This document shows positions 1 through 16,469 of a stretch of 44,149 nucleotides of DNA, one piece after another. How positions within the stretch are numbered: the first letter of the stretch is position 1; the number at the start of each line of letters is the position of its first letter. The notes under the pieces are model-generated. The model did not search any database and was not told the origin of the DNA. It saw only the letters and a program-made list of their open reading frames with translations. Source of the stretch: an uncultured Gammaproteobacteria bacterium (GTDB lineage: Bacteria; Patescibacteriota; Microgenomatia; UBA10105; UBA927); NCBI GenBank assembly GCA_964515005.1, contig CAZEVT010000001.1, forward strand, positions 376,720-420,868, in the 5' to 3' direction. The translations under genes and the position numbers were made by a program.

Positions 1-2011
1 CATTTGTTTGCGTGTACTTGGTCATGTCTAGGGCGATTCTGTGCCAGGCCGCATCACTCCCGCGAAGGAACAAATGATCAGTTGCGGAGGAGCCAATGGA
101 ATCGGAGTCATAGAAAACCGTGCCTTCGGTCGTTGAGGTGGAAGAGGTGATAGGGGTCAGGAATATCTCGCCGCCGGAAACGTAAATGTCATCACCGAAG
201 ACTCCGTCACCGGCGACATTAAGTGAGATGACCGGCTCAGCCGGGTCCAGATAAAACGCGTTGTTGGCGCTGTCGAGGAACCGCTGTCCGATGAAGTCAC
301 CGTCGTTTTGGATTTGGTAGACGGAACCATGGAACAGGACATCGCCGGTGCCATTGGGATCGAGCGTGAGGTTTTCGTTCGTGTCTTGGGTCGTAACCGT
401 TGGGGTCGTACTGTTGAGTCCCAAAACAAGATCGCCTGCTGAGATATCCCCGGACGTGCCGTTAAGAAGAATAAGAGCGCTTGCGGTGGCTGTACTGGAC
501 CTGGGGACCGCATCAGTGCTTCCCAGGGCAATCGTCCGGTCTACGACCGGGTAGGGGTAGATGACGTTGTTCGTTTGAGTAAACAGATTTTCTCCATTGG
601 CACCTATTTGCCCTGTGGGTCCGGTGGGGCCTGTTTGTCCTGTGGCTCCCGTGGTACCTGTAGACCCTGTACTCCCTGTGGGCCCGTTGGCACCGGTGGC
701 TCCCGTGGCTCCGGTTGATCCGGTTGGGCCATTGGCTCCTGTTGCGCCCGTACTTCCCGTGGTACCCGTGGCTCCGGTTGGCCCACCGATTCCGGTAGGC
801 CCATTGGCCCCCGTGGCTCCTGTTGCCCCTGTTGCCCCCGTTGATCCGCTCGGCCCGGTAACACCGGTAACGCCATTGGCCCCCGTGGCTCCGGTGGCTC
901 CGGTAGGACCAGTAACGCCTGTAACCCCATTGGCTCCGGTGGCTCCGGTGGCTCCCGTTGATCCGCTCGGCCCGGTAACACCGGTAACGCCATTGCTTCC
1001 TGTAGGCCCCGTGGCTCCGGTCGGGCCAGTATTTCCGCCGGTTCCGGTTGGTCCACTTACCCCTGCCGTGCCGGTTGGACCGGTCGGCCCGGAAGAACCG
1101 GAAACACCAACACCTCCTGCCGATCCGGATGCTCCGGTGGCACCGGTCGGCCCACTTGTTCCGAGAGCTCCTGCCGCCCCCGTTGCTCCCGTGGCTCCTA
1201 AAGGTCCGGATTGACCCGTTGATCCCGTTGGTCCGGTTTGGCCTCGTACAGCTGCGGTCTGTGCAGCTCCACCGGATTGCTGTTGACCAACGGTTCCGCT
1301 TCCCTCCGCCGCTTTCGGGGCTTGCCCACTTTCTTGTTGTGCCCCACCGCGTATGCCGAGAATTTGGATGGTTAGCGCTCCTGCTCCCAAGAGTGCCAGA
1401 AGTAGCAAAAGCGCAATAACTGCAGGGCTGGTTCTTCTGTTGCCGGGGATAACCACGGTTTCCGAGGTTGCAGTGGGCTGGGCTTCCGTGGGGGCCGCGT
1501 CAGGTGAGGTAAAGATTGGAGCGAAAACTTGTGGGGCGGCGTTTTGCACTGGTTCAACGTTTAGCGCTGTGGCCTTAGGCGTAGGAACTATTTCTGGTTT
1601 TTGTGGTTCATCTATTTTTGGTACACGCTGGTATAAGGCTCTATCCGATAAAGCTTTATCAATCTGCCCAGGGTCATACCGACGGGCCCCCCCGGCGGTC
1701 CGCGTGCTGGTAACTAACCCTGCTTTTTCCCATCTGAGGAGTGTGCTTTTTGATATACCTATTCTCTTGGCGGCACCCGCGATAGACACGGGAGTCGTGC
1801 CGCTTTGGCCGGTTTTAGCTGAAGCAATAGTCGTAACCGGCAATTTTAGTTTGTTCAAATTATCCTGGGCAAAAACATGGATGCCATGATCATCGATGGT
1901 CGAAGAAATTTTCCCTGCTTTTTCCCACCGTTTAATGGTCGAACGGGAAACTCCAGCAAATTTTGCTGCTTGACTTATAGTTAGTTTTTTTGTGTTACCC
2001 ATATCCTTCAT
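1..2011 (-). CDS. Giant membrane-anchored collagen-like surface protein 1 with tandem MerR/excisionase-like HTH N-terminus (partial; 3' end beyond window)
   Basis: Not in the ORF track because it has no stop in the window. Manual translation from ATG 2011/2002: M(KDM)[31 protein letters not shown]...[57 protein letters not shown]-x-T repeats ~600-1245, then ...[19 protein letters not shown]..., open to position 2. Paralog of 2305-9207. Confidence 0.9.
258..742. repeat. 485-bp direct repeat, copy 1 (identical to 7436-7920)
   Basis: Read-through comparison at offset 7178 showed no mismatch; spurious ORFs at 348/7526 and 597/7775 recur at the same offset. Confidence 0.93.
600..1245 (-). repeat. 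Collagen-like Gly-X-Thr coding repeats, gene 1 (about 70 triplets)
   Basis: [12 protein letters not shown] 9-bp periodicity; includes a ~42-bp internal duplication (837 vs 954). Confidence 0.9.
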
Positions 2012-2123
2012 ATTAATTTTCTCTTTGGGACGCTAGCTATGCACGCTTTACGGGAAAACACTCTGAAATGTGATGACGAGGGTTTGCGCGAGTTTGCGAG
2101 GCAGGATGTTGAGGCATAGTTTT

Positions 2124-15500: not shown

Positions 15501-16469
15501 TGTGGCTCCCGTCGGTCCATCAGATCCGTCGCCGCCCACTCCTCCCGTTGGTCCATAAAACCCGGACGGTCCCGTGGCACCTGTCGTGCCGGTTGGACCT
15601 GTGGTGCCGCTTGAGCCGGTAGGTCCTGTTTGTCCTCGGACACCAACGACCTGCGGTCCGCCGCCTTGTCCCTGATTTTGTCCGACGACGCCGCTCCCAC
15701 CTGCAGCTTGCGGAGCTTGACCGCTTTGTTGCTGTGCGCCGCCCCGAATACCTATAATTTGAAGAATTAGCGCTCCAGTCCCCAATAGTGCCAAAAGCAG
15801 CAGTAACGCAATCGCCGCAGGCGTAGCAAAGCGTCGTAAGTCGCTTTGTATTGGAGGCGGGGCGCCTGCGGGAATGACGATGGTTTCAGGGGCTGCTACC
15901 GGAGGTTGTTGTTCTGTCGTGAGAATTTTGCCCGGAGACGGAGGGATGGATTTGACCGCTGGCACCACTTGGGGAATTACTTTTGTGCCATCCGCAAGAG
16001 GAATAGGGATAGGCACGACCGTCGTTCCCTTAGGAGGGGGAAGTAAATGTTCTTCCTGCAAGAGATGATCAGTGCGTGCTGTCTTAGAGTCGTTTTTTGG
16101 AAGATTGTTGACTCCTGGCGTCGGGTCATCCGTTACCCATCCTTGGACGACTGCGCATTTAAAAAACATGCGTATGGCCGACAATCTCCGGTTTATTGTT
16201 GCGCTGGGGGTACGGTCCAAAACTTGTGCCTGTTTATACTCTTCGAGCCCCTCGCGTTTTACGTAAGATACGAGTTCTTTGGCATTCTGGGGATCTGCGG
16301 CAAGCTTTTGTTGATATGAGTTGAGCGCCCAAGTGAAGAAGTGTTTGATATCAGTGCGGTAATTTTTTCGAGTTATTTCAGAAGCGCCCTGCTCGAGAAG
16401 AAATCCGGCAAACGTTCTCTCTATGAAGTCTTGATAATCCTGCAGATTAGACAGAATTATATTAGCCAT
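9501..16469 (-). CDS. Giant (~2320 aa) surface protein 3: tyrosine-recombinase N-terminal SAM-like (core-binding) domain, TM, collagen stalk, LamG, beta-helix-like repeats
   Basis: N-terminus [15 protein letters not shown]...[15 protein letters not shown]...GWVTDDP matches the XerC/XerD/integrase N-terminal pattern, with no catalytic domain. Same TM/linker as genes 1-2; LamG ([29 protein letters not shown]); C-terminal FHWFIVN. The ORF-track start TTG at 16505 is part of a TTGACA box, so ATG 16469 is preferred. Confidence 0.92.
15005..15640 (-). repeat. Collagen-like Gly-X-Thr coding repeats, gene 3 (about 70 triplets)
   Basis: G-x-y triplets from GQTGPTG to GLIGPNG. Confidence 0.9.

Follow-up and report, generated by a model that had tools for sequence, protein, structure and literature searches.

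In this study, we analysed a stretch of 44,149 nucleotides of contig CAZEVT010000001.1 (G000:C1:376720-420868, hereafter the window) from a genome of 961 kb in 14 contigs that is 98% complete, and found that three giant minus-strand open reading frames (ORFs), placed in tandem over the first 16.5 kb with ~290 nt between them, each join a head of predicted DNA-binding fold to a membrane segment and a collagen-stalked fibre within one polypeptide. The layout is common to all three paralogs and consists of the head, a proline-rich linker, one hydrophobic segment, 72-79 G-X-Y triplets and an acidic passenger of 1800-2600 amino acids (aa), about 1800 aa in both genes that lie wholly inside the window, with a LamG-like domain (Laminin_G_3 in P0002 and P0003 according to Pfam). 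The original prediction, made from the letters of the window, had proposed this shared layout with ~70-80 triplets and passengers of about 1800 aa in the two complete genes, and both points agreed with the ORFs, Pfam matches, hydropathy and triplet counts obtained here. The domains and their order, the recurrence of the design in other genomes, purifying selection on the heads and the continuity of the assembly are computed results, and the array is best read as an extreme variant of the transmembrane transcription regulators or as a nucleoid tether. The features of the array are as follows, in window coordinates; helix-turn-helix is abbreviated HTH and transmembrane TM.

2..2011, minus strand: par1 (P0001), first 670 codons; the gene runs off the window, continues to G000:C1:369383 and has a full length of 3115 aa
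1886..1984, minus strand: par1 HTH 1, HTH_17/excisionase type, aa 10-42 (Pfam)
1655..1786, minus strand: par1 HTH 2, MerR type, aa 76-119 (Pfam MerR, 69 bits, cut-off 28.2)
1355..1423, minus strand: par1 single hydrophobic (TM) segment, aa 197-219 (hydropathy and conserved motif)
587..1243, minus strand: par1 collagen run of 73 G-X-Y triplets, aa 257-475 (Pfam and triplet count)
2305..9207, minus strand: P0002, complete gene, 2300 aa (ORF; stop included in the coordinates)
9073..9180, minus strand: P0002 HTH 1, aa 10-45 (Pfam; TIGR01764 excise, 50.6 bits, cut-off 28.8; structure model)
8821..8979, minus strand: P0002 HTH 2, MerR/BldC-like with RTxGGARR wing, aa 77-129 (Pfam, PDB sequence match, head alignment, structure model)
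8659..8817, minus strand: P0002 proline-rich linker, aa 131-183 (low pLDDT, the confidence score of the model, at the C-terminal end of the head model)
8587..8655, minus strand: P0002 TM segment, aa 185-207, followed by a conserved outer juxtamembrane motif of 11 residues
7765..8475, minus strand: P0002 collagen run of 79 triplets, aa 245-481, ~68 nm if triple-helical
4669..5145, minus strand: P0002 Laminin_G_3 (concanavalin-like lectin) domain, aa 1355-1513 (Pfam, 65.9 bits)
9501..16505, minus strand: P0003, complete gene, 2334 aa from a TTG; the likelier start is the ATG at 16469, which gives 2322 aa as in the database copy P0004
16143..16400, minus strand: P0003 tyrosine-recombinase core-binding head (Phage_int_SAM_1), aa 36-121 (Pfam, structure model), with no catalytic domain after it
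15750..15818, minus strand: P0003 TM segment, aa 230-252 (hydropathy and conserved motif)
14997..15644, minus strand: P0003 collagen run of 72 triplets, aa 288-503 (Pfam and triplet count)
13119..13613, minus strand: P0003 Laminin_G_3 domain, aa 965-1129 (Pfam, 63.3 bits)
7436..7920, no strand: exact repeat of 485 nt, identical to window 258-742 and common to par1 and P0002

The heads belong to two kinds. Those of par1 and P0002 are tandem MerR/excisionase HTHs (Pfam HTH_17 and MerR), with PF00376 (MerR) at 69 and 50.3 bits against a cut-off of 28.2 and HTH_17 at 36.8 and 54.2 bits against a cut-off of 27, and the head of P0003 is a Phage_int_SAM_1 domain (PF02899, 32.3 bits, cut-off 22.3). 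In the AlphaFold2 model of the P0002 head (24-row alignment, mean pLDDT 88), two winged-helix units are joined by a low-confidence spacer, and each of them superposes on DNA-bound BldC (6ama/6amk) with a root mean square deviation of 1.4 Å over 49 residues and 39% identity according to Foldseek; NmlR, SoxR, the RacA-DNA complex 5i44, GlnR/TnrA and mycobacteriophage Xis were also matched, all at a probability of 1.0. TraN, which has tandem HTHs, aligns over the whole P0002 head, but its domain arrangement differs. The best non-collagen sequence match of P0002 in the PDB was the 72-residue BldC (6amk/6ama, E 3e-5). The P0003 head was modelled as a four-helix bundle (AlphaFold2, 14-row alignment, pLDDT 77.9), whose best Foldseek matches were all N-terminal domains of tyrosine recombinases, namely XerA, archaeal Xer, IntI, Cre, XerD and the core-binding domain of lambda Int, with weak E-values (0.08-3) and probabilities up to 1.0. 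The MerR/excisionase and integrase core-binding assignments of the original prediction were therefore supported by Pfam and by the models with their structural matches, and on profile and model evidence the heads are genuine DNA-binding folds.

The SoxR, CueR, ZntR and HspR equivalog models scored far below their cut-offs for the array heads, the NCBIfam BldC model reached 43 bits against 77, RacA 20 against 170-265, and for P0003 the XerD model TIGR02225 gave 34.4 bits against 329.6, the XerD and XerC models both standing at about one tenth of their cut-offs. Among the stretches listed, the best MerR_1 ones cover profile positions 2-45 (P0001) and 1-53 (P0002) of 69, and the HTHs are followed by the proline-rich linker in place of the dimerising coiled coil and effector-binding domain of canonical MerR regulators. 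Likewise, no catalytic-domain family was found among the Pfam matches of P0003, where the linker and TM segment follow the head instead. Across 24 aligned HTH heads, columns G43, A83, S89, R95 and R106 do not vary, the recognition-helix positions vary little or not at all, and the RTxGGARR stretch, which we take to be the MerR wing signature, is nearly invariant. The HTH heads are very basic (net +13 and +15 in 135 aa), and the SAM-like heads of relatives carry net charges of +6 to +10.

Comparison of the paralogs revealed a mosaic. The first 700 residues of par1 and P0002 are 61% identical, with the heads as the most diverged part (46-62% identity) and the TM modules 90% identical, and the two genes are identical over a 485-nt stretch after the collagen; P0003 has the end of the linker, the TM segment, the collagen and the post-collagen module in common with both of them, but an unrelated head. 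The proportions of nonsynonymous and synonymous differences (pN/pS) between par1 and P0002 were 0.378/0.669 in HTH1 and 0.28/0.867 in HTH2, against 0.757/0.765 in the spacer between them. Because the HTH units show far fewer nonsynonymous than synonymous differences and the spacer shows equal proportions, the heads are kept by selection. In addition, DNA binding is the one known property that the two head folds have in common, and the head is exchanged on the same stalk in P0003, so DNA rather than a common protein partner was taken as the probable ligand.

Immediately behind the head, each protein contains a single strong hydrophobic segment, whose Kyte-Doolittle mean over 19 residues is 2.7-2.8. 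At the threshold used for TM segments (a mean of at least 1.6), the only other one in the three proteins is a weak segment (1.62) at the doubtful TTG start of P0003. The conserved TM motif quoted in the original prediction was found in exactly these three ORFs of the genome. The head, folded and 135-230 residues long, has no hydrophobic segment ahead of it. In most family members, lysine and arginine residues are more numerous in the 15 positions before the TM segment than in the 15 after it, with 2 versus 1 in the window genes and 3 to 6 versus 1 in relatives with SAM-like heads. Furthermore, five homologous giants that have no head (L005, L011, L013, L014, and L015) open with a hydrophobic segment at aa 6-44, where a signal peptide or signal anchor would lie, which suggests that the common passenger is exported and the head placed inside. 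A motif just outside the membrane, QIxGIRxGxQRxxPSxA, is conserved in the closest subgroup and absent in more distant members. With the strongly basic HTH heads and the strongly acidic passengers pointing the same way, the most coherent topology would be N-in/C-out, in which one hydrophobic anchor separates an inner head from an outer fibre.

Each gene has one unbroken G-X-Y run, of 73 triplets in par1, 79 in P0002 and 72 in P0003, 66-72% of which are G-x-T, whereas in composition-matched shuffles such runs averaged 2.4 and never exceeded 12 triplets; PF01391 (Collagen) scored 71-105 bits in the array proteins. The collagen triple helix rises 0.286 nm per residue, from which the stalks were computed at 62-68 nm. 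The passengers are strongly acidic (net charge -59 to -144), and the C-termini of all three fibres end in a conserved F-x-W-[WF]-I-[ILV]-N, with no LPxTG-like motif near the C-terminus of any of them. Although the fibres are without such a motif, a sortase is encoded 14 kb away from the array (window 30172-30744). The part of par1 beyond the window (G000:C1:369383-376719) holds two long internal repeats, each of which opens with a near-identical "GTGADGAI...SSDTSINAT" module followed by glycine-rich stretches, and this part had no PHROG family match.

The tail-fibre-type modules of the original prediction were overstated. PHROG tail-fibre matches do exist, and they are essentially restricted to the collagen part (aa 220-530 only, except for one phrog_819 stretch at 291-1095), the 2443 non-collagen residues of par1 having no PHROG match, and Pfam found no Peptidase_S74 in the three genes of the window, this domain being present only in relatives. 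A language-model Atlas lead pointed from the C-terminus to viral clusters containing Peptidase_G2 and is weak (score <0.9). A prophage or tail-fibre identity was considered and rejected, as the PHROG matches are confined to the collagen, S74 is absent and the neighbours (leuS, comEA, comEC, argS, sulfatases, and Wzy_C) are not phage genes.

The possibility that the fusions are assembly chimeras, which the original prediction had named as an objection, was checked against reads and other assemblies. There are no runs of N within the array, and the longest exact stretch common to the 5' part of P0003 and P0002 is 23 nt, which makes a repeat-driven misjoin at the P0003 head unlikely. Eleven public runs contain part of the stretch, three of them nearly all of it, and contigs from four runs were compared. 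In run X3, a different sample from the same study as the possible source, one contig covers 8324-10287 without differences from the window, spanning the collagen start, TM segment, linker and both HTHs of P0002 and beyond, and another covers 15348-16304, again without differences, spanning the collagen, TM segment, linker and most of the SAM-like domain of P0003; in run X1, a 35-kb contig covers 10272-17400. Parts of the array have no listed contig cover in runs X2, X3, and X8. With these bridging contigs and the recurrence of the layout in independent assemblies, the head-TM-collagen fusions are not assembly chimeras.

The 485-nt repeat (506 nt at 99% in a wider match) forms a contig of its own in X1, with a depth of 20.6 compared with 12.8-14 for its flanks, and reflects either recent gene conversion between par1 and P0002 or assembly ambiguity. 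Since it is separate in X1, the pairing of 5' parts with passengers in par1 and P0002 rests on the assembler, but the architecture does not. One X1 contig fuses the C-terminal parts of P0002 and P0003 (3114/10507 and 10322/3065) with 37 other letters between them, and may represent a recombinant population variant or a graph artefact at the conserved C-terminal module.

The survey for head, TM and collagen fusions that the original prediction had proposed revealed that the design recurs in other Patescibacteria assemblies. A search of 5.8 billion proteins with the post-collagen module returned 13 giants (1464-3203 aa) from other assemblies, seven of them with a precomputed PF02899 match, and P0005 (3060 aa) showing the full HTH-HTH-collagen-LamG layout. 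In a locus scan with P0002 as query and one genome per species, 22 loci were found in metagenome-assembled genomes (MAGs) named as Gottesman-, Pace-, Woese-, Shapiro- and Roizmanbacteria, Microgenomates, Parcubacteria, Patescibacteria and Saccharibacteria, and in several labelled Gammaproteobacteria or Pseudomonadales. Six of these loci were set aside because the ORF was open at a contig end, fragmentary or possibly broken. Among the 16 with a readable N-terminus, 11 have a head, comprising tandem HTHs in three loci (L002, L003, and L008) and one or two SAM-like domains in eight (L004, L006, L009, L010, L016, L019, L020, and L022), and five have none; all 10 homologue N-termini submitted to Pfam matched a DNA-binding family. 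The gene of L016 (6642-14926) is split, an 816-aa ORF with two SAM-like domains and a TM segment abutting a 1945-aa ORF (P0006), which could reflect a frameshift, a sequencing error or a real break.

An exhaustive HMMER search of 1.84 billion representatives with the P0002 head and TM segment gave 800 matches at E ≤1e-3. In the best 150 of these, 66 have exactly one TM-like segment, and 81 have none and are short (median 171 aa), some at least being fragments that end in linker or collagen. Of the 33 proteins of at least 700 aa among these 150, 30 have a TM-like segment at aa 90-380. Thirteen long matches were passed through Pfam, and all contained tandem MerR/HTH_17, with Peptidase_S74 in five, hundreds of residues C-terminal to the TM segment, Collagen in four and an H-type lectin in one. 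A word-indexed search with the head (aa 1-235) recovered only the paralog P0004 among proteins of similar length and three fragments among shorter ones, the index being too insensitive; it was the exhaustive HMMER search that brought the family to light. Among 400 other genomes sampled evenly across the phylum, 16 contained the passenger module, 25 an HTH head in open frames of at least 900 aa, and 11 a SAM-like head in such frames; these 11 all fall within the class or family of the window, where 24 genomes were sampled. The starts of 20 head-bearing frames (the N-terminal ~500-700 aa) contained a hydrophobic segment in 18, at residues 101-358, and a head within the first 250 residues in 16 by single-sequence phmmer; both were found, with the segment after the head, in 14.

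Several side observations arose from this survey. Head matches occurred in frames of 8840 aa (G057) and 7471 aa (G380), which are among the largest genes of genomes of ~1.0-1.5 Mb; for G057, no head or TM segment was captured in the 2.2-kb sample. Giants in six records titled "uncultured Gammaproteobacteria" or "Pseudomonadales" (L003, L005, L010, L016, L017, and L018) are 37-57% identical to P0002 in the best segment, and to judge from these Patescibacteria-type genes the labels of those MAG records look wrong. Public annotations of P0007, P0008, P0018 and P0020 read "cytoskeletal protein CcmA (bactofilin family)", "PDK domain-containing protein, nonfunctional", "predicted site-specific integrase-resolvase" and "XRE family transcriptional regulator". 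A family that is misnamed in this way is easily overlooked in gene catalogues.

On one flank of the array lie leuS, a ComEA-like gene, comEC and argS, and on the other a phosphodiesterase gene, two sulfatase genes and a Wzy_C-type gene. The leuS gene (window 17313-19850) adjoins homologous giants in five loci, from Pacebacteria to Saccharibacteria (the window, L006, L014, L015, and L020), and this conserved adjacency speaks for a long-standing chromosomal gene and against a mobile one; such synteny is unexpectedly stable for a fast-evolving surface gene. At window 19854-21247 and 24422-25261, divergent from the array, are found a ComEA-like gene (SLBB and HHH_3), a ComEC competence domain and a separate metallo-beta-lactamase ORF, ComEC being apparently split over several ORFs. 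Recurrent neighbours of the homologous giants include a LysM-M23 peptidase (six loci), immunoglobulin-like (Ig-like) proteins, a multi-pass TPR protein and two uncharacterised ORF families (9-10 loci). Promoter-like sites upstream numbered 20 versus 15.3 ± 3.4 expected, and terminator-like sites 16 versus 18 expected. Two Peptidase_M50 (site-2 protease) genes were found in the genome, and a rhomboid protease was not found in it at 98% completeness.

These observations suggest three paralogous surface fibres of a bacterium of the Patescibacteria, or Candidate Phyla Radiation (CPR), each predicted to be a single-pass N-in/C-out (type II) membrane protein. Export would be initiated by the hydrophobic segment, which would afterwards stay in place as a signal anchor. 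The collagen run would trimerise into a stalk of about 60-70 nm, enough to clear the wall and surface layer, and lift an acidic passenger that bears a LamG-type lectin domain and most likely serves in adhesion to a host cell or a surface. The trimer would cluster three (SAM-like) or six (HTH) DNA-binding units under the membrane, where the heads may bind chromosomal DNA while tethered, and the fibre would thereby couple its own presence or state to transcription, hold the nucleoid at its base, or both. Trimerisation from the collagen, DNA binding in vivo, adhesion and the regulatory or tether role are what we infer here, and we consider the chances about even that the tethered heads act on DNA as a transmembrane regulator or nucleoid tether.

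Several points weigh against this view. The five homologues without a head indicate, by their sequences, that the fibre itself can probably do without the head. It is hard to see how a constitutive collagen trimer would pass a ligand signal through one helix, and an HTH in a bitopic protein need not bind DNA, as the HTH of RodZ binds MreB. The topology is drawn from hydropathy, charge and comparison, and here the charges flanking the TM segment in the window genes favour N-in only weakly, while among 60 relatives with HTH heads the N side is higher in 32, the C side in 12, and 16 are tied. The P0003 head, besides its weak structural E-values, is nearly neutral (net +1). No conserved ToxS-like small partner gene was found in the flanks, only lineage-restricted neighbours, and alignment of the three upstream regions found no shared operator-like element.

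Some of the same observations would fit heads that have no DNA role and serve either as basic, fast-folding cytoplasmic plugs that fix N-in and anchor the fibre, or as docking modules for a cytoplasmic partner. Such heads could be lost, as in 5 of the 16 loci with a readable N-terminus, their type and copy number could vary freely (one or two SAM-like domains, or two HTHs), a nearly neutral head such as that of P0003 would be tolerated, and in the absence of LPXTG the TM helix is the only evident anchor. However, a few lysine or arginine residues would suffice to set the topology, the DNA-contact wing and recognition-helix positions of MerR are kept, with the heads but not the spacer under purifying selection, and a single protein partner for both folds is less likely than DNA, their one common known ligand property; we therefore regard a plug or docking role as rather doubtful. 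We hold it to be unlikely, more so than the plug or docking role, that contact- or tension-gated cleavage of the site-2 protease type at the membrane frees the trimeric head as a soluble transcription factor, as in MYRF or Notch. The conserved juxtamembrane motif of the closest subgroup, the two Peptidase_M50 genes, the self-cleaving Peptidase_S74 in 5 of 13 sampled HTH-TM relatives and the MYRF precedent of a DNA-binding domain, a tailspike module and a TM segment (as reported in PMC3742443 and PMC3742440) all point in that direction. Yet site-2 proteases are near-universal and their presence is little informative, the juxtamembrane motif is absent from more distant members, and S74 is missing from the window's genes and, where present, lies far outside the membrane, so that cleavage would free the tip. 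At a similarly low level of probability, the fibres may be contact sensors of an episymbiont, comparable to Notch and MYRF, in which load on the adhesin would lead by cleavage or clustering to action of the trimeric head on the chromosome; if this were true, host attachment would directly reprogramme transcription, and different heads would address different gene sets.

Two further explanations have far less in their favour. A DNA-handling device tied to competence, in which the fibres would import or hold DNA together with the adjacent ComEA/ComEC, is suggested by the ComEA-like and ComEC genes within 4 kb, divergent from the array, and by a ComEC-region ORF of metallo-beta-lactamase type beside homologous giants in three loci, but the heads are on the cytoplasmic side in the most coherent topology, most related loci adjoin envelope genes (LysM-M23, Ig-like), and the recurrent neighbour is leuS (five loci), so the competence genes may merely follow housekeeping synteny; this idea is very improbable. 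Least probable of all, and with hardly any chance of being right, is an artefact or mobile cargo, that is, chimeras formed across collagen repeats or prophage tail fibres. Collagen repeats and the 485-nt exact repeat do break short-read contigs, and the PHROG tail-fibre family matches and the weak viral-cluster lead for the C-terminus would be in keeping with a phage origin, whereas the second-sample contigs span both kinds of head-TM-collagen junction and the same architecture is present in many independent assemblies.

Transmembrane transcription regulators combine a DNA-binding domain with at least one TM region, and 50,302 members, 56% of them single-pass, are counted in the main text of Demey et al. 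(2023; PMC10269533). The array proteins have both elements, a DNA-binding domain by Pfam and fold and at least one TM region by hydropathy. Like ToxR, CadC and TcpP, they are predicted to carry a DNA-binding domain at a cytoplasmic N-terminus, a membrane anchor, and a C-terminal part outside the cytoplasm, all within one chain. In contrast to the small sensor domain of those proteins, the outer part here is a collagen-stalked fibre of 2000-2900 aa, presumably trimeric, and the heads are of MerR/excisionase or recombinase core-binding type rather than the OmpR-type winged helices of transmembrane regulators. The terms "collagen", "Patescibacteria", "Candidate Phyla" and "HTH_17" are absent from the main text of PMC10269533, and an ectodomain of the present kind goes far beyond those described there. 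We found no published description of proteins with a head, a TM segment and collagen or a giant fibre, although the supplementary tables of PMC10269533 and PMC6744442 may list such proteins, and the architecture is apparently undescribed. The original prediction had held that no characterised system has this architecture; that statement stands for the full layout and does not for the generic class of DNA-binding domain plus TM region, which had already been published (PMC10269533), MYRF, RacA and RodZ being partial precedents.

Each of the nearest known systems has some parts in common with the array proteins and lacks others. BldC and RacA are the best structural matches of each P0002 HTH; both are small and soluble, unlike the array HTHs, which form tandem pairs covalently linked to a TM helix. 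BldC works as a multimer on repeated sites, and RacA anchors the chromosome to a membrane-associated pole complex, a precedent for a tether role; by analogy, a trimeric cluster of heads would suit a BldC-like or RacA-like function. The heads of par1 and P0002 have the winged HTH with MerR signature of canonical MerR regulators, without a coiled coil or effector domain, and unlike the tyrosine recombinases (XerC/XerD, phage integrases) P0003 keeps the core-binding domain only, no catalytic domain being present. RodZ is bitopic, with an N-terminal cytoplasmic XRE-type HTH that binds MreB, one TM segment and a small outer domain; compared from its description, it resembles the array proteins in the succession of N-terminal HTH, one TM segment and outer domain, and differs in the small size of that domain and the XRE type of its HTH. 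The MYRF DNA-binding fold is of Ndt80 type and differs from the array heads. In MYRF, a DNA-binding head, a phage-fibre-type trimerising module and a single TM segment are combined and trimerisation is reported to be needed for DNA binding (PMC3742443, PMC3742440, and PMC5436001). The array proteins are similar in uniting a head, a trimerising module and a TM segment in one chain, with Peptidase_S74 in 5 of 13 sampled HTH-TM relatives, but their fibre lies beyond the TM segment, and the arrangement typical of MYRF, with S74 after the DNA-binding domain on the same side of the membrane, was not found. As in Scl1/Scl2, BclA and Lcl, a long unbroken G-X-Y stalk bears a globular outer domain, and its richness in G-x-T resembles that of BclA; the anchor of those proteins is LPXTG or an attachment to the exosporium, and they have no cytoplasmic domain, whereas the array fibres lack LPXTG and carry a head. 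The SclA, SclB and Lcl models of NCBIfam scored 64-122 bits against cut-offs of 325-500.

The Patescibacteria account for much of bacterial diversity and have an attached way of life on other cells, and to our knowledge how they sense and hold their hosts is largely obscure. If the tethered heads do act on DNA, fibres of this kind would connect the outermost tip of the cell directly, by physical or regulatory means, with the chromosome. The class of transmembrane transcription regulators would then extend to proteins whose ectodomain is thousands of residues long, and MYRF and Notch would have a counterpart in prokaryotes. Small size and ease of expression of the heads make the idea testable, and the design is recurrent enough in Patescibacteria to deserve a name of its own.

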